Source of the DNA: Polyangiales bacterium
GTDB taxonomy: Bacteria; Myxococcota_A; Polyangia; Polyangiales; Ga0077539
NCBI GenBank assembly: GCA_044229975.1
Contig: JBGARZ010000004.1
Location: 384,001 to 448,000, forward strand
Reading direction: 5' to 3'
DNA: 64,000 bases
Below, piece by piece: positions 44,751 to 52,703 of the stretch. The position numbers and the translations under genes were made by a program. The first letter of the stretch is position 1. The number at the start of each line of letters is the position of its first letter. The notes under the pieces were generated by a model. The model did no database searches and was not told the DNA's origin. It worked only from the letters and a program-made list of their open reading frames with translations.

Positions 44751-45008
44751 TTACAACACTCGATATCGCCCGCGATCAAGTTGTTCGAACAGCGCATCGC
44801 CGGTTTGGGCGCACCTGCACGCTCCCTTGTTGGTGTGATTCCGACAGTGGTCGGATGGCAACACCCACGTCTGTTGAGACTCCAGCTCCGGGAATGCAGC
44901 CACGAGGGCAGCCCGGATATCCGCAGGAGTCACTTCCTGACCACGGAGCGAATGTATCGCTTGGGCCAGAGGGGCATGGAACTTACTGACAGCTTCCACG
45001 AAGCTCAT
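44751..45008 (-). CDS. Small hypothetical cassette protein
   Basis: 85 aa, LPSDHC.N..C.C..LFE..RGRY; follows attC 45113-45203. Confidence 0.65.
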   Translation of the reverse strand: MSFVEAVSKFHAPLAQAIHSLRGQEVTPADIRAALVAAFPELESQQTWVLPSDHCRNHTNKGACRCAQTGDALFEQLDRGRYRVL

Positions 45009-45112: not shown

Positions 45113-45203
45113 GCCCAACGGCTGGCCGATGTGCCGCCGCAATGAACCAGCCGTTCGTTCCTCTGGCCAAGCGTGAGCGGTCGGCACCATCGGCTTGTTA
45201 GGC
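45113..45203 (-). other. attC site 1 (91 bp)
   Basis: Minus strand GCCTAAC-AAGCCGATGGTGCCG...CGGCACATCGGCCAGCC-GTTGGGC. Confidence 0.85.
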
Positions 45204-45219
45204 TCCAACGACTGTGGAG

Positions 45220-45999
45220 TCATGCTTCTGGGATTCCCAAAGGAGTTTCACGAAGAAGTCTGGCGACTTGACCGTAGAGTTGCTCCCGCTGTTCGACCTT
45301 GTCTTTCCCATGATGAAGCCGTCGGTGGCAGCTAGGGCACAATGCCACCGCGTTTTCGACTGTGTCCGAGCCTCCGTGAGCCAGTTGTCGAACGTGATGG
45401 AGTTCGAAGTACGGTTCGTCGTCATTTGTCAGAAACGCAGACGGTGCGTGACACAGCTCGCATAGACCCTTCGCGTCGCCCAGCACCCAAGCCTTTACAA
45501 GTGGGCATCTTTCGTACGTAGCGCGGGTCGCAGACGAACGCTTCGCAGGCGTCTTTTGGCCTTTCGGCCGTGGCAAAGACAGCTTCCGCAGGCATTGAGC
45601 CCTCTTCTCGAATTCGACGACGTCGTCAGTAGGCAACTCCACGATCAACGGCGCCCGATGAAAGCCAGATACCTCGACTTTTCCAGTCCGATGCGATACA
45701 TGAAGTTTGCCGTTGCCAAGGGTGAGATTCCACCGCTTCCCTCCTGTTGCGGAGTCAGATAGCGTGTCTTCGACAAGGAGTTCGCTGGCGAGAGCGAAAG
45801 GAATCACATGATGGTCACGCGGATCATCTGACTTCGTCCTGTAAACCACTAGATTCGGTCCCGGTTGTGCTCTTGCCTTCGCCTGCTCGATTCTTCGCTG
45901 CAACGTCGCCGGAAAGACCGCAAACCAGTCAGTATTGGCAAGTACGACGTACTCCCCCCTCGCTTCGAGTTCGTCTTTGACTTCGTCGACCACGCTCAT
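45220..45999 (-). CDS. HNH endonuclease, McrA-like C-terminus
   Basis: CELC..F....PYFELHHV..L..GGSDTVENAVALCPSCHRRLH. Confidence 0.85.
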   Translation of the reverse strand: MSVVDEVKDELEARGEYVVLANTDWFAVFPATLQRRIEQAKARAQPGPNLVVYRTKSDDPRDHHVIPFALASELLVEDTLSDSATGGKRWNLTLGNGKLHVSHRTGKVEVSGFHRAPLIVELPTDDVVEFEKRAQCLRKLSLPRPKGQKTPAKRSSATRATYERCPLVKAWVLGDAKGLCELCHAPSAFLTNDDEPYFELHHVRQLAHGGSDTVENAVALCPSCHRRLHHGKDKVEQREQLYGQVARLLRETPLGIPEA

Positions 46000-46141
46000 G
46001 ATCCGCTCAGCTTTCTTGAACGCATGCGTAACTCTTTGGCGGCCAAATCGGTCATTGCCCCGGATCTCGCCGCTGCGGTCTTCCACTCGTGCTCGGACCG
46101 CGATCGGCTTCTCCATGGCTCGCCGTCGCTCGCGATGCGCT

Positions 46142-46232
46142 GCCTAACGGCTGGCCGATGTGCTGCCGCAGTGGGCGCGGCGGGTTGGTGACGGGTGCAG
46201 TGGGAGCGGTCGGCACCATCGGCTTGTTAGGC
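46142..46232 (-). other. attC site 2 (91 bp)
   Basis: Same outer arms as attC1, variable centre; RYYYAAC/GTTRRRY ends. Confidence 0.85.
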
Positions 46233-46267
46233 CAAAGCGCTCGAAGCCATCGCTGAAACACTGCAAG

Positions 46268-48622
46268 TTAGCCGGAGGTGATTTCTAGAAACGACCAAAA
46301 CGCAGGATGGATAGCGAAGATGGCATCGTCATCGCGGTAGTCCTTCGCGATCCAACGAAGTTTTTTCATGTCATAAAACACTGAGTACGAATACAGGATG
46401 CGCCCTCCATCCTCCAACTTGCGTTCGACGACCCCAAGGAACGAGAACCAGAGGAGAATTTCTAGCAGATTAGGGTACTCCTGTTCTGGAACGAGAGTCT
46501 CTCGAAAGCGCTCATAGATCTTCTTTAGTGTGAGGCGATAGGGCGCCCCAAGAAATGCATAAAGGATGTCATTCGCAAGAGGAAAGACGTCGCGAATTTC
46601 CAGCCCAACTTCGTTTCCAAGATCGGCCGAGTACTGGCTAACTGCCTTGTGAACATCATCCAAGGTAATCTTCGTGCGAGACATGTTGACTGCGTTGCTC
46701 TTGCAGTAATTTACCAAGTTAAGGAGGTTGCGTGGCCTCATTAGCGAGAGGTCGATAAGTCGATCGGCACTGCTCTCCCCATCAATGTGCGAAATCGCGA
46801 TCCGATTCCAGCTTTCATCAAAGCTATCAGTCGAAAAGAACCCCGCATTGGCGATGAATCGCCGCCGAAGCAGTTCCTTGAGGAGATCAGGATCAGTCCA
46901 GTCGAGCGAAACGCGGGACTCCTTCCCGCGATCGGGAGTCTGGTCGATGAGAATTTCGAACACGTCATTGCGCAGGAAGACGATTGTATGAACTTCCACT
47001 TTTCCGCGCGCCATGATCCGTTCGATGTCGCGGGTTGCCTCGAGAAGTCCACGTAGAATTACGATGTCGGAGGGCTGCACGCCGCGGGTGGGCCACCCTT
47101 TGTCGATATTGTCGAAGAGAATCCATGCATCTACTTTCAGCGAAAGATACTTGATGAGACGGTCTCGCAGCTTGCGGATGTCGTGGCGATAAACAAGGTG
47201 CGCAATATCCTGAGCATTTAGATTATTATTCGGAGCATGTTGAGATGCTGGACTGTCGCGAAAACGCTCCGTGATTTGCTGTACGAGCTTGAGCATGCGC
47301 TCTGAAAAGTCGCCTTCGCTAACATAGTCGTCCGCGGCATAGAGTTCTGCCAACTCCTGATATGCCTCGTAGAGATCCGTGTTTCCCATGTGGACCGAAC
47401 GGTCCTTCTCTAGCAGTTTGTGGCACAATTCCAAAAGCAACACATACTCCCAAAATGCCTTACAAATGTGTTCTTGGACCGCCTCACCAAAGAAACGAAG
47501 AAGCATGTCCTTGAAGTGCTTCAGCTGATAGCCCTCTGGCTTCAGATCGATAACGATGCGCTTTCGATTCGATCGGATCTTGTTTCGAACCTGGAAGAAC
47601 ATCGCCGTCTTCCCGGATCCCTTCCGGCCAACCACCAGTCGTACACTGCCGTTGACGGCCTTGCTGTAGTGGTCCGTGGGGAGGTAGTAGTCATCGAGGC
47701 GAGACATCTCGTTTTCCGCTGCCGATGCCCCCAGATCGAGGTTGCTCAGAAAGTTCGATGGCCCATCGACTGCAGTCTCGTCTGCATTCTGCAATCCCTC
47801 CATAACACGAGGGGCAAGTTCAGAAATGTATTTATCGATGTCACTTGGCTGCCTATATACGCTAACGAGGTCGCGATAGTCCAGCGGGACGGGATCGTCA
47901 GCCTCTTGAAGAAGAAGTAGTTCCTTTTCGAGGCCAGTCGCGAGGCCAGCAACGAACGCAGCTCGCCAGTTATTGATCTCGAAATCGGTCGATTCTCTGG
48001 ACAGCAAGTGAACAATGACTGCGATCGAAGCTGCTACCCCACGAAATGCCTCTGTCGTGGAAAGCCGTGGCTGCTCCAATGGATCGAAGTTACGAAACAA
48101 GATCTTGGACTTCTTGATCTTAGCGATCGTCCGAATTGAAGCATCGGTCTTCTGGGTCGCCTCAACCACGAAGATCGGCGCCTTCCTATCGATCGGAGTA
48201 TCCGGAAATTTAGCGGGCTCTACGCTCCGAAGTTGGTCGAGAGCCTTCGCGAGTTGCATGGAGTTCGCGTATGCTTGGTAACCGAGAGTATCGAAAACAC
48301 CAAGTCTATTGAGCTCCTTGAGTTGCGGCTGGAGAGCGGAGTTGAGGGTTAGAAACACTCGCTTTTTCCTGCCAATGGCGTAGCCAGCTTCGTAACAGAC
48401 GTTGAAGTTGAGTCGCGTGATGTCAGCGACTACAAAGTCAGCGCGGTCGATTTTTTCGAGGATTGCATCGATGATAAAATGACCAGGGATATCCAACTGG
48501 CGCCAGGTTTCGACGCCATCCCATTGCGCTTGGCTGCGCAAGGTCTGAACGGCAGCTTCGATTGCCTGGCCGATCTGCGCTGGCGCTGAGGCATAGGCTA
48601 CGAAAACCTTAGTTGACTTCAT
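46268..48622 (-). CDS. NDT/TIR-like domains fused to a P-loop ATPase (Sll1717-like); putative defence protein
   Basis: ADFVVADIT..NFNVCYEAGYAIG; Walker A GRKGSGKT; Walker B WILFDNID; FLRND; RPR; visibly lower GC. Confidence 0.8.
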   Translation of the reverse strand: MKSTKVFVAYASAPAQIGQAIEAAVQTLRSQAQWDGVETWRQLDIPGHFIIDAILEKIDRADFVVADITRLNFNVCYEAGYAIGRKKRVFLTLNSALQPQLKELNRLGVFDTLGYQAYANSMQLAKALDQLRSVEPAKFPDTPIDRKAPIFVVEATQKTDASIRTIAKIKKSKILFRNFDPLEQPRLSTTEAFRGVAASIAVIVHLLSRESTDFEINNWRAAFVAGLATGLEKELLLLQEADDPVPLDYRDLVSVYRQPSDIDKYISELAPRVMEGLQNADETAVDGPSNFLSNLDLGASAAENEMSRLDDYYLPTDHYSKAVNGSVRLVVGRKGSGKTAMFFQVRNKIRSNRKRIVIDLKPEGYQLKHFKDMLLRFFGEAVQEHICKAFWEYVLLLELCHKLLEKDRSVHMGNTDLYEAYQELAELYAADDYVSEGDFSERMLKLVQQITERFRDSPASQHAPNNNLNAQDIAHLVYRHDIRKLRDRLIKYLSLKVDAWILFDNIDKGWPTRGVQPSDIVILRGLLEATRDIERIMARGKVEVHTIVFLRNDVFEILIDQTPDRGKESRVSLDWTDPDLLKELLRRRFIANAGFFSTDSFDESWNRIAISHIDGESSADRLIDLSLMRPRNLLNLVNYCKSNAVNMSRTKITLDDVHKAVSQYSADLGNEVGLEIRDVFPLANDILYAFLGAPYRLTLKKIYERFRETLVPEQEYPNLLEILLWFSFLGVVERKLEDGGRILYSYSVFYDMKKLRWIAKDYRDDDAIFAIHPAFWSFLEITSG

Positions 48623-48767
48623 AGTCTGTACAACTCCTTTGCGTTGACTAATTGCACTGGCGGTGGTGAGTAAACAACAATGCGATGGCTTCTAGTTGTC
48701 GTTCGGCATTCAACAGCAGTTTTTCCTGGCCCTCGTCTTGCTCTCGACGTCCGGCCTTCTGTTGACG

Positions 48768-48858
48768 GCCTAACGGCCTGCCGATGTGCCGCCGCATTGG
48801 GCACGGTGGATTGGCAGCGGGTGAAGTGGAGGCGGTCGGCACCATCGGCTTGTTAGAC
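48768..48858 (-). other. attC site 3 (91 bp)
   Basis: Minus strand GTCTAAC-AAGCCGATGGTGCCG...CGGCACATCGGCAGGCC-GTTAGGC. Confidence 0.85.
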
Positions 48859-48968
48859 ATGCCGACCACAGCCTCACGCCGGGCGCTCGTCCGCCAGAGT
48901 CCGTCGCTGTTGCCACCGCGCTCGTTGTCGCCGCCCGTTGTCACCCGAGTTCCTCGTTGTCGTCACTC

Positions 48969-48997
48969 GTTGTCCGTTGTCCGTTGTCCGTTGTCCG
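48969..48997. repeat. Heptamer tandem repeat (GTTGTCC)x4
   Basis: Seen directly, with degenerate GTTGTC units back to about 48909. Confidence 0.8.
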
Positions 48998-49052
48998 CCC
49001 GTTGCTCTTCCGCGGGGCCAATTCACCGCTCAGTGTGTCGTCAATCATTGCC

Positions 49053-49313
49053 CTAGTCAGCGCTGGGTCCAGATGCGACCGCGCGCAACACATCATCACC
49101 AAGAAGATCTGCTGCAACGCGAACGAAGTCACGGATCTGAGCTGGATCACTCGGCGTGCCGTCGGCCAGGATGCCCATATCCGACATCAGGCTGACGGTC
49201 GAGGACTCTCCGCGCTCATTGTATTGCACGACGAATGCTTCGAGAATCTTGTAGGCGTCGCGGAGCGAAACCTGACGATCGAAGATCGGATCATCCAGTC
49301 GTAAGTACCCCAT
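49053..49313 (-). CDS. Small cassette protein, immunity-protein-like
   Basis: 86 aa, GGAGAG RBS, DGTPSDPA..DF motif; lies between attC3 and attC4. Confidence 0.55.
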   Translation of the reverse strand: MGYLRLDDPIFDRQVSLRDAYKILEAFVVQYNERGESSTVSLMSDMGILADGTPSDPAQIRDFVRVAADLLGDDVLRAVASGPSAD

Positions 49314-49337
49314 TGCTGACTCTCCGTAATTTGACCC

Positions 49338-49448
49338 GTCTAACAGAAGCCTTCTTTCGCGCCCGGCCCAGACCACGTTCAGAGATTGCCCCAGCATCGG
49401 TCGCGGTTGCAAGAACCTCGGGCCGGGCGTGAAAGGAGGCCGTTGGAC
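49338..49448 (-). other. attC site 4 (111 bp, different family)
   Basis: Plus strand GTCTAAC..GCCTTCTTTCGCGCCCGGCCC...GGGCCGGGCGTGAAAGGAGGC.GTTGGAC long imperfect hairpin. Confidence 0.7.
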
Positions 49449-49728
49449 AAACTGCGGGGCAGCGCGCCGGAGCGGCACGGTGCTCGCTATGGGATTTGAA
49501 TCGGGACCGAGCCTCCCCAGTGATCGCGGCCGGGGAGGTTGCGCCGCAGTGGCCGTCGGGCGTCGCGTCTGGGTTCTGGGTGCACACCGGGTCTCATCGA
49601 CGTCGACGGGCCTGCCACGAGGCCCCGAGCGCTTGCGGATCGAGCGGGATCGACGGTCGGCGCAAAGCGACCCCAGACCGAGGTCCGAACGGGCCTCGGT
49701 GTGACGACCGCCACGGTGACGGCGACGC

Positions 49729-50937
49729 TCACGACGTGTCTCTCGCGACCGGCACCGTGGCGGTGAGGTCCAAGTCCACCACTGGGGCCAATGACCTCAC
49801 CACGACGAGCTGGCCGACGCCGCAGACCGTGCATTGACCCCGCCGGTGCTCGTCCGTGGGACGTGGCTCCGTGGCCTGTGACCGTGACGGCGTAGCCGCG
49901 GCCTGTTGGAGGGTCCCCAGCAGAGCACGGCACCGCTTCAGGTTCTGCGCCCGGTAGCGGTTCGCGAGCAGTCCGTAGTAGCGAATCCGCACGAAGCCCG
50001 TGGGCAGCACATGCAGCAGGAAGCGGCGGAGAAACTCCCCGCCATCGAGGGTCATGGACTTCTGCCCGCCGGTGGCGTTGTCCCGATAGCGGAAGGTAAC
50101 GGCCTTGTCGTCCATGGACAGGATGCGTCGGTCGCTGATGGCAACACGATGGGTGTAGCGCGCGAGGTACTTGAGGACCTGCTCGGGAGAGCCGAACGGG
50201 GCCTTTGCGTAGACGACCCAGGCACGATCCCGTTGGGCCTTCAGGAAAGCCGCGAAGCCGGCGGGGGTGGCGAGGTCCGCCGTGGCGCCAGCAAACCGGA
50301 GCGCCCCGGTTCGCTGGGCCTTCTGCAGGAAGGCGAGGAACTTGCCGCGAAACAGACGGGTGAGGACGCGGACCGACAGGAAGAAGTTGTCGCGGCTCGG
50401 CACCCAGCGCGATCCGTCGGGCGCGAGACCGCCGCCTGGGACGACACAATGGACATGGGGATGATGAATGAGGGTCTGCGTCCACGTATGAAGAATGGCG
50501 AGGAAGCCGATGTCGGCCCCAAGGTGCGCGGGGTTGGCCGCGACCTCGAGAAGCGTCTCGGCGGCCGCGCGGAGCAGGATCTGATAGACGAGCTTCTTGT
50601 TGCCCAACGCGAGCGCGGCGACCTCGGTTGGCACCGTGAAGACGACATGGAAGTAGGATACCGGAAGGAGTTCTTCGGCACGTGCTTTGAGCCACTGGAC
50701 GCTCTTGTGACCAAGACACGAGGGGCAATGGCGGTTGCCACAGCCGTTGTAGGCCGGGAGCTCGGTGCCGCATGTGTCGCAGCGATACAGGTGTCCCCCG
50801 AGCGCGGCCGTATGGCAGCGCCCCAGGGTGGAGAGAACGGCGCGCTGTGCCGGGGTGACGCCCGCGCCGCTCCGATCGAGCAGGGCGGGGCCGAACCGAC
50901 GGATGACGTCGCCCAGCGTGGGGGTGTCACCGTGCAT
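49729..50937 (-). CDS. IS91-family (Y2 HUH) transposase
   Basis: Zn domain CDTC..CGNRHCPSC; YFHVVFT; LHTW..HPHVHC; YLARY; IRYYG. Confidence 0.95.
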   Translation of the reverse strand: MHGDTPTLGDVIRRFGPALLDRSGAGVTPAQRAVLSTLGRCHTAALGGHLYRCDTCGTELPAYNGCGNRHCPSCLGHKSVQWLKARAEELLPVSYFHVVFTVPTEVAALALGNKKLVYQILLRAAAETLLEVAANPAHLGADIGFLAILHTWTQTLIHHPHVHCVVPGGGLAPDGSRWVPSRDNFFLSVRVLTRLFRGKFLAFLQKAQRTGALRFAGATADLATPAGFAAFLKAQRDRAWVVYAKAPFGSPEQVLKYLARYTHRVAISDRRILSMDDKAVTFRYRDNATGGQKSMTLDGGEFLRRFLLHVLPTGFVRIRYYGLLANRYRAQNLKRCRALLGTLQQAAATPSRSQATEPRPTDEHRRGQCTVCGVGQLVVVRSLAPVVDLDLTATVPVARDTS

Positions 50938-50950
50938 GACGGCACCCGCG

Positions 50951-51814
50951 CTACGACGTCACCTCCTTGAAGTGTGCGATGGCGTCGAGCGGGCTCCTGG
51001 TGGCGGTCACCAGCTTGCGCTGCACATGCGTGTAGATCGCCGTGGTCGACAGGTTGGCGTGGCCGAGCAGGGCCTGAACCGTCCTGAGGTCGACTCCGGC
51101 TTCGAGGGTGTGTGTGGCGAAGCAGTGCCGAAGCGTGTGAGGCGTCGCATGCTTGGAGAGCCCGGCCGTCACACGGGCTCGCTGGCAGGCCTTCTCGATC
51201 GTCGTCACGTGAATCGGCTTGGTCGGGTTCGCGCTTGGGAACAGCCAGGGGCTGCCGGGAACCTTCGGCCGCTGATCACGCCAGTAGATGCGGAGTTTCC
51301 GTAGGAGAACGTCCGAGAGGGGAAGCAGGCGGGGCTTCTGGCCTTTGCCCTGCTCGACGTGGATCAGCATGCGGGCGCTGTCGATGTGCTCGGCCCGGAG
51401 CGCGACGGTCTCCGTGATCCTGAGGCCCGCGGCATAGGCGGTGAGCAGCGCCATGCGATAGACGATCTGGGGGACCGCTTCGATGAGGCGAACGACCTCC
51501 TCCTGACTGAGGACGACGGGGAGCGAACGCGGTTTGCGGCCGTAGGGAATCTGCTCGACCGGCCAGGCCACCTTCAGGGTCACCCGGTAGAGAAACTTCA
51601 GTGCACAGACCGTTTGATTGAACCGCGACCACGACGTCCCCGCGTCGAGCAGGTGGAGCTGGTAGCGGCGCACGTCCTCGGCACCGAGCACATCCGGTGA
51701 GCGCCGGTGGAACGTCGCGAAGCCGATGACGCAGTGGACGTAGGTCTCGATCGTGCGGGGCGAGTAGTTCCGGAGCTTGAGATCGTCGATCATCCTCTGG
51801 CGTAGAATCGTCAT
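50951..51814 (-). CDS. Tyrosine recombinase with N-terminal SAM-like domain
   Basis: LRNYSPRTIETY; AGLRITE; GKG; HTLRH; LLGH; TTAIYTH; no IntI-specific insertion. Confidence 0.95.
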   Translation of the reverse strand: MTILRQRMIDDLKLRNYSPRTIETYVHCVIGFATFHRRSPDVLGAEDVRRYQLHLLDAGTSWSRFNQTVCALKFLYRVTLKVAWPVEQIPYGRKPRSLPVVLSQEEVVRLIEAVPQIVYRMALLTAYAAGLRITETVALRAEHIDSARMLIHVEQGKGQKPRLLPLSDVLLRKLRIYWRDQRPKVPGSPWLFPSANPTKPIHVTTIEKACQRARVTAGLSKHATPHTLRHCFATHTLEAGVDLRTVQALLGHANLSTTAIYTHVQRKLVTATRSPLDAIAHFKEVTS

Positions 51815-52048
51815 GGGAGCCTCCTTGTTGGAAGGCTCCCACGATGACGTCGCCCGCGCGCGGGATCCCCGACGAGCGGACCGAGCTGTCAGGAGAGCAG
51901 CCGCGCCGCAGTCAGTACATCGAAGTGTGCTCGCGCGGACACCACCATGGATGAAGCAACTGGCGAGAAAGGAGCCGAATCGGCATTGCAGACAACTGGC
52001 AAGTAGGGCACGATAGCGATGTCGGTTGAACCACCGCGAAGCGGTTTA

Positions 52049-52176
52049 GTCCAACATCTCAGTAGACTGCCGCCGACTGCCTAAACCCGCAATAGGAGCT
52101 GTTAGCCCGCTGCTGCCTAAACCCCTAATCCACATTGGCGGCACTAGCCCGCCGCTGCCTAATCCCCTCTTAGGCA
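52049..52176 (-). repeat. attI-like site with three CTGCCTAA direct repeats and a TGCCTAA-N7-TTAGGCA palindrome
   Basis: CTGCCTAA(A/T)CCC at 52077, 52113, 52155; palindrome 52156-52176. Confidence 0.55.
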
Positions 52177-52519
52177 TGTCGTCCCGTCCGCCGCCCACCT
52201 GGCGCAACCCGGCCGACGCCTCGACCGACCCCACGGCGGCTCTTCCGCAGCCCCGCTCTGTTGCCCCTCCGACCGACGCCAATGTCGCGCCTCCCCGGGC
52301 CGTCTCTGCGCTCCCGCGCGCCGAGCCTCGCGCGGTGCAACTCCGACTCCCCCTGCTCCCCCACGCGCCCAACATGAACCCGCTCCCCTCCCTTTCGTCC
52401 AAGACCCGCTCTCCGTAGCTACGCCCGTCCTCCTCCCATCGTCAACGCTGTCGCCCCTTCGCCGCCCTCACTCGCCCGTCGCCGCGCCCCCGTGTGAAGA
52501 CCGCGCGTGCTCTCGTCGC

Positions 52520-52703
52520 CCATCCGCATGACTTCGTGTGGTGGCAGTCCCCGGAGCCTACGCCGCGGCGTCAGCGCGCGAGCGAGTGAGCGATCACGTT
52601 CCCGGCCCTCGTCTCTCCGATCCGGAGAGGCCGTGGTTGCGCGCCGCGCTGACGCCGCGGCGTAGGCCCCGGGGACTGCCACCACACGAAGTCATGCGGA
52701 TGG
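52520..52703. repeat. 59-bp inverted repeat (1 mismatch) with 66-bp spacer; MITE/REPIN-like
   Basis: Arms 52520-52578 and 52645-52703; ORFs on both strands begin MVAVPGAYAAASAR. Confidence 0.9.

Follow-up and report, generated by a model that had tools for sequence, protein, structure and literature searches.

Analysis of a 64,000-nucleotide stretch of the genome of a Polyangiales bacterium (GenBank assembly GCA_044229975.1, contig JBGARZ010000004.1, positions 384,001 to 448,000 of the forward strand; the whole stretch is termed the window) brings out a mobile element of 2711 bp on the minus strand, reaching from the TT of its left G|TT to the G of its right G|TT (49344..52054), in which a tyrosine recombinase (YR) and an IS91-family transposase are packaged in the manner of an integron gene cassette. 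It is a real and widespread cassette-mimicking variant of the IS91 family, and this packaging is real and family-wide. As judged from sequence comparison, the element probably integrates itself through its own recombinase, since relatives occur in multiple copies where no integron integrase (IntI) was found and use cores other than GWT, and its HUH transposase plausibly supplies single-stranded DNA of the bottom strand.

Genes, ends and hairpin of the element

The recombinase (287 aa; 50951..51814, minus strand) matches Phage_int_SAM_4 and Phage_integrase with its catalytic RKHRHY residues intact, and scores 201 bits against TIGR02249, below the cut-off of 265, the IntI-specific insertion in the catalytic domain being absent. 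The transposase (402 aa; 49729..50937, minus strand) is an IS91-family HUH/Y2 enzyme with a zinc-binding domain and the HPHVH and YLARY motifs, scoring 416 bits against NF033538 (cut-off 125) and matching PF04986 and PF14319 as well. Both genes are intact, and the profile matches confirm the original prediction that a recombinase and an IS91 transposase share one cassette-like element.

GTTGGACTAAAC, with its first base at 52055, and GTTTGTCCAAC, with its last base at 49442 (both on the minus strand), are 11-12-mers that occur once each in the window, and a position check of GTTGGAC and GTCCAAC agreed with the predicted coordinates and motifs. With GTCCAAC (49448-49442) as its R'' box and GTTAGAC (49344-49338) as its closing end, a hairpin folds on the bottom strand (49448-49338) at -30.9 kcal/mol (z -5.0), none of 200 shuffles being equally stable. 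Complementarity of R' and R'' is 7/7 in the element and in each of the next three cassettes, as the rule put forward earlier had it, and 2/7 in the last, which is devoid of an attC. The hairpin is assigned to the element because it is also present, as far as the final GTT, in a copy of 89% identity from a Myxococcales genome, and because near-identical contigs from other samples (X5, X6) match up to 49342 and then differ; in a further contig (X7) G|TTGGGC comes after the matching part. The right boundary is therefore the G|TT at 49344|49343 with the entire hairpin inside, and not GTCCAAC as first described. What had been labelled attC4 is the element's own right end and travels with its relatives.

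This attC-like site (49338..49448, minus strand; arms 49420-49439 and 49350-49369; crossover 49344|49343) has no extrahelical bases and an ungapped stem of 27 bp. BLAST did not match it to the host attC family, of which several contigs carry dozens of members in all, and Rfam gave no match either. An inverted copy of the left end (49442..49455, minus strand), which includes the R'' GTCCAAC, would lengthen its stem in a circle. The bulged base described in the pairing of the ends holds here and in one further locus (L001) and fails as a family feature, most relatives pairing without it by eye. The left end itself is terIS-like (52033..52052, minus strand), with GGAC (GTCC on the bottom strand) followed by the hairpin ACCGC-TTC-GCGGT, a layout equal to the left ends of the fetched IS91 and IS1294-like elements; the terIS tetranucleotides are named in PMC13181058. 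An oriIS-like motif, GATTCAAATCCCATAG (49487..49502, minus strand), lies internally about 40 nt before R'' and about 140 nt inside the right boundary, with no CAAG or GAAC at the canonical distance, whereas oriIS is terminal and followed by CAAG in the fetched IS91 and IS1294-like elements.

Relatives were collected as 40 loci from a scan of species genomes and, by the left-end pattern, 121 metagenome stretches of an estimated 3400. Of 53 rows long enough for both ends, 30 complete elements entered the comparison: each GTT-type element whose right end could be recognised is represented once, and duplicates, non-GTT lineages and rows with an unclear right end were set aside. The order of terIS hairpin, YR, transposase, oriIS-like motif, inverted left end, hairpin and crossover is common to relatives from several phyla. 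The ungapped stem has a median of 18 bp in the 30 complete elements as against 8-9 bp in all 23 pattern-recovered host attC sites. The extra base on the 5' arm is absent in 20 of the 30, the other ten having by eye a gap in the spacer or distal stem, whereas two extra bases occur in 23/23 of the host attC sites and one to three in 12/12 of the flanking attC sites that were checked. The YRs of the relatives likewise lack the IntI insertion, with RKHRHY intact in 36/37 (one is truncated). Since that insertion serves to accommodate the extrahelical bases of attC (PMC4792948), the two matching features are missing together from the site and the enzyme of the element.

An ordinary gene cassette that captured a non-mobile IS91 remnant beside a host-made attC could be imagined from the first array position and the observed R'/R'' rule, and passive shuffling is raised for an ISCR28 followed by attC in PMC12772301. 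We consider this very improbable: the hairpin is unlike the host attC family and has no BLAST match outside itself, its position is conserved across phyla, both genes are intact, and multicopy near-identical relatives at unrelated sites largely refute the idea.

Solo right ends, consisting of the oriIS-like motif and the hairpin without recombinase or transposase, head small rows of cassette-like genes at L193:7870-8036 (G001:C151) and at L194 and L195 (G011), the match in L195 stopping exactly after the R'' GTCCAAC; these are possible non-autonomous derivatives. In several Mesorhizobium copies (L245, L247-L249) one and the same foreign sequence takes the place of the left end, the change falling right at the terIS tetranucleotide; it may be another element that targets this end. 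Viral contigs yielded a single match.

Insertion targets and the integrating enzyme

Insertion sites were assessed in 126 distinct left junctions (127 were found and one C|TT end was dropped), with GTT forced by the pattern in the metagenome part. An attC in cassette orientation precedes 16 of them, compared with 0.5% in shuffles, though in one case it resembles an element-type hairpin; intI is within 600 nt of another 12, and four are at host-type attI-like sites. At least 32 of the 126 are thus integron-linked, a lower bound as flanks reach 1200 nt in 57 junctions only. A detectable attC also lies downstream of 6 of 19 complete copies (0 in shuffles). The remaining left junctions, part of them within tandem repeats, are G|TT sites that show a weak YR-type box, and TA stands at -8/-7 in 33 of 105 non-hairpin junctions against a background of 6%. 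Integron sites are thus strongly enriched among the targets and are not required, and the pattern suggests that the targets resemble simple sites of recombinases.

In genome G854, whose left ends are identical to that of the window element, all seven junctions lie in tandem repeats of about 40 bp; left ends only were seen, right ends not being found with the right end of the window element as query. The claim that the flanks are always attC or attI GTT sites is contradicted by this case and by the count of integron-linked junctions. Short motifs unrelated to attC, named earlier as the finding that would speak against the hybrid idea, do hold most copies; as these motifs are G|TT sites of recombinase type, insertion by a recombinase survives in a broader form. 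Of the hybrid itself, the supply of single strands by the HUH enzyme stays plausible and the element's own recombinase the likeliest integrator, given multicopy relatives where no IntI was found and cores foreign to IntI, while the restriction to attC- or attI-like targets is lost.

Several further observations concern the target. Tandem-repeat tracts are hit repeatedly (L368-L374 in G854, L203-L213 in G073), and in the G073 copies within such repeats the right crossover falls directly after the position of the G. The copies of G067 (L221-L228) share by eye a longer target consensus of about GGATCA-N-CCTTCGCCG|TYA-N4-GGATCT. A strict target duplication of 2-3 bp was considered and rejected: it holds in three G073 copies in repeats and in only 4/8 G067 copies, and L027 and L116 do not show it. 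The idea of backward insertion into the R'' boxes of attC sites was likewise dropped, the 126 junctions of this left-end type offering no convincing case (two are ambiguous) and one by-eye case being L020. Target repeats without an insertion, looked for by pattern in G280 and G075, came out at control level, and the pattern search in the element's own phylum was noisy apart from G854 and G823. In a sample of 401 genomes, in which the first three bases were left free except that T was excluded at the first, and whose matches are not all verified elements, a hand count found GTT before GGAC of the GGAC lineage in 2 of about 53 matches.

As to which enzyme integrates, an IntI passes the cut-off in 5 of 25 carrier genomes (one of them the unpublished G082; many of the assemblies are incomplete). 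G067 holds seven full copies and one interrupted copy and G073 eight full and one interrupted, and neither has a match spanning the IntI insertion; G263, a single contig of 4.94 Mb, contains three copies of GTT type that are 99.8% identical, and of intI no more than a remnant. Multicopy relatives are also found on two plasmids of Mesorhizobium and Bradyrhizobium, and PMC4889954 reports no integrons in 243 alphaproteobacterial genomes. The rhizobial relatives pair G|ATT-GAAC left ends with GTTC-AATC boxes, the core changing together with its partner box, and copies in G073, G075 and G280 sit at non-GWT sites, whereas genome insertions by IntI need GWT (bioRxiv 10.1101/2022.09.11.507474). The family is accordingly taken to be self-mobile by inference, and for GTT lineages in IntI hosts help from IntI is possible.

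For the lineage of the window the main rival is that last enzyme. The element would then be a parasitic cassette that host IntI inserts at attI, attC or secondary GWT sites, whose transposase amplifies single-stranded circles and whose YR only excises or resolves multimers. The host IntI passes TIGR02249 with 412.9 bits, both host copies of the element stand at attI-like sites, the right junctions of all 30 GTT-type elements are GTT or GAT and so fit the GWT consensus of IntI genome insertions, and the junctions after attC and near intI point the same way. We nevertheless hold this to be a rather unlikely, if serious, account: the hairpin is without extrahelical bases, relatives are multicopy in genomes with no IntI found and occupy non-GWT sites, and the account could hold only for GTT lineages.

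The transposase has left a mark of its own on the left ends. In G067, G073, G075 and G280 the 2-3 bases from crossover to tetranucleotide vary among near-identical copies, while everything from GAAC or GGAC, the terIS tetranucleotide of IS91, onwards is invariant, which points to an HUH cut at terIS. A carry-over of the donor's right flank as the 2-3 nt left of the tetranucleotide was examined and rejected, with 3/5 (G280) and 3/7 (G075) against 3/5 and 2/7 in a cross-genome control. Ordinary rolling-circle transposition by the HUH enzyme alone, cutting its target at RYYY|AAC with the YR as accessory resolvase and the hairpin as part of the origin, would agree with this invariance in four multicopy genomes, with the conserved terIS layout and with two G075 copies followed by A-GGAC or A-GGAG. 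It appears improbable, because the oriIS-like motif is internal with no target tetranucleotide after it, the right crossover of G073 is two bases off the position of that model, L027 and L116 (left GTT, right GAT) fit a G|WT crossover, and TA is favoured upstream of the targets.

Integration by the element's own recombinase may then be pictured as follows. The HUH transposase would release a single-stranded circle of the bottom strand, the only circle strand of IS91 functional in insertion (PMC13181058), which is also the strand on which the hairpin would fold and the one used in attC recombination; once the predicted circle is closed, the left end would complete the hairpin stem and lengthen it. 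The folded hairpin would then be joined by the YR to double-stranded G|TT sites, attI among them, and replication would presumably resolve the product; in this host copies would have landed in this way at attI-like sites. Loci L155 and L207/L214 show head-to-tail junctions, one hairpin directly followed by the next left end, as a circle junction could look.

A number of points weigh against self-integration. Eight of 18 listed public runs, covered at the level of contigs, which drop rare forms, gave no circle junction, and no RNA run carrying the element was listed. With its internal oriIS-like motif, a canonical ori-to-ter circle would lack the hairpin, and a YR that has no IntI insertion would need some other means of preventing a second strand exchange. 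The absence of IntI comes mostly from incomplete assemblies, and the rhizobial data are plasmids, the chromosomes lying outside the search. The host of the window has an intact IntI, and all four left junctions seen in the host genus (window, C2, L001, L196) are at attI-like sites. GTT precedes GAAC of the GAAC lineage in 33 of 34 matches of the 401-genome hand count, which IntI could also produce. Lastly, the copy on contig C2 may have moved jointly with the next cassette, which would be behaviour like that of IntI.

Surrounding array and host genome

The element is the first cassette of an ordinary host array. It follows an attI-like site (52053..52180, minus strand) with a CTACTGAGATG|TT core, TTAGGCAG direct repeats upstream and no adjacent intI, the CTACTGAGATG|TT 13-mer recurring at the attI on contig C4 that adjoins the only intI of the host. 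A predicted Pc-like promoter motif, TTGACG-N18-TAGCTA (52416..52445, minus strand), has three occurrences genome-wide, each 296-416 nt upstream of an attI-like site. Just upstream of the motif in the window is a 59-nt inverted repeat (52520-52703), 98% complementary with arms 66 nt apart.

Behind the element come cassette 2 (48768..49343), coding for an 88-aa hypothetical protein, with the host-type attC3 (48768-48858); cassette 3 (46142..48767), with a 784-aa Sll1717-family P-loop ATPase that has a weak TIR-like N-terminal match, and attC2 (46142-46232); cassette 4 (45113..46141), with an HNH endonuclease, type IV restriction-like, and attC1 (45113-45203); and as last array gene a DUF7225 gene (44751..45008) with no attC after it, all on the minus strand. 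The genes at 46268-48622 and 45220-46116, for the Sll1717-family ATPase and the HNH nuclease similar to type IV restriction enzymes, look defence-related. The attC sites of the array other than the element's own are of host type with two extra bases.

Seven attI-like sites head arrays in the host genome (G000), at C2:257029, C2:354656, C14:18948, C19:436053, C23:369207, C28:41738 and C4:247878. One belongs to a complete integron, on C4, whose IntI has intact catalytic residues, and six have no intact intI alongside; the Pc-like motif stands upstream of three, and the one on C28 retains an intI remnant. The element is present at two of the seven (the window and the end of C2, whose assembly includes 130 nt of an identical left end), and the other five are without it. 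Cassette 2 has two more copies on contig C23, 99% and 95% identical, one of which begins 36 nt into the cassette at the contig edge, from which the window and C2 copies of the element may be non-independent insertions. Because an intact IntI exists elsewhere in the genome and five of the seven attI-headed arrays are free of the element, it is a passenger of arrays and not their builder. The idea of an array built or moved without IntI is thus not needed, the host-type attC sites with two extra bases and the one intI remnant agreeing with this.

Known systems and significance

In a tree of 42 rows (15 of 57 were left out as near-duplicates, long or truncated), the element YRs and IntI stand together against Xer with an SH-aLRT of 99. 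Monophyly of the element YRs is not rejected (p-AU 0.42), and IntI nested among them or sister to them are both compatible. GTT cores occur on several deep YR branches, and G|ATT and variable cores mostly in one nested clade. The gene pair is already catalogued, and a single cassette-like case has been published. Two-gene IS91 members are listed in ISfinder, ISSod25 among them. ISShvi3, of an IS91 subgroup with an upstream tyrosine recombinase, is named in PMC9229058. The available text of bioRxiv 10.1101/542381 gives IS91 recombinases as the closest IntI homologues without the insertion and groups them with IntI likewise; that of its journal version, PMC8138268, does not mention IS91. An attC after ISCR28 is reported in PMC12772301, and the movement of attC clusters devoid of an integron integrase (CALINs) by HUH elements is a speculation in PMC7923331. 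No literature on ends, targets or mechanism of the element was found within a coverage that left out most subscription papers, supplements and ISfinder.

With the IS91 family (IS91, IS801, IS1294, IS1294b and the ISCR relatives) the element shares a Y2 HUH transposase, the terIS tetranucleotide with its left hairpin, an oriIS-like motif downstream of tnpA and the lack of a long target duplication. It differs in that this motif is internal, the right end is an attC-like hairpin at G|TT in place of ori followed by CAAG or GAAC, and the targets have features of recombinase sites. From integron cassettes it has the G|TT crossover, R'/R'' complementarity, a bottom-strand hairpin with the longer 3' spacer, its position at attI or after attC and a YR grouping with IntI against Xer; unlike them it has an L stem without extrahelical bases, a YR without the IntI insertion and enzymes of its own, and its relatives are found where integrons are lacking and make use of other cores. 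Selfish elements at integron recombination sites also include IS1111-attC elements and group IIC-attC introns (PMC9229058, PMC7923331), but these use other enzymes and interrupt an existing attC, whereas the present element brings its own site and enters at the crossover. Nor does it share the strict attC insertion of the IS1111-attC type, with 16/126 left junctions after attC. CTX phage relies on host XerC/D at one site, whereas the recombinase here is element-encoded and the targets are many. What is common is the reaction of a folded single-stranded site with a double-stranded target by a tyrosine recombinase and a rolling-circle source of the single strand, as at dif (PMC4792948). The surrounding array resembles a CALIN (PMC4889954) in its three host-type attC sites and the lack of an intI match within 4 kb upstream; it differs in keeping an attI-like site and a Pc-like motif, with IntI elsewhere in the genome.

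PMC4792948 describes an open chicken-and-egg problem, namely how either of the two, the IntI insertion and the extrahelical bases of attC, could have arisen without the other, and a lack of a reliable model for cassette genesis. A relative of IntI without the insertion, joined to an attC-like site without bulges in a widespread element, is the predicted intermediate. Tentatively, and we regard it as doubtful, such elements could be a living pre-integron system, in which an insertion-less YR fed by an HUH enzyme integrates a folded, bulge-less single-stranded site, IntI and attC descend from an element of this kind, and solo right ends heading arrays in two related genomes could be one of the ways in which new attC sites and arrays arise. 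With such an element the origin of IntI and attC becomes testable. If self-integration is true, it would constitute a transposition route joining HUH and tyrosine-recombinase chemistry and a link between two bacterial gene-mobility systems, it would supply a role for the recombinase, so far unexplained, of this IS91 subgroup, and it would add a third kind of selfish element entering integrons, here at the expressed first position.

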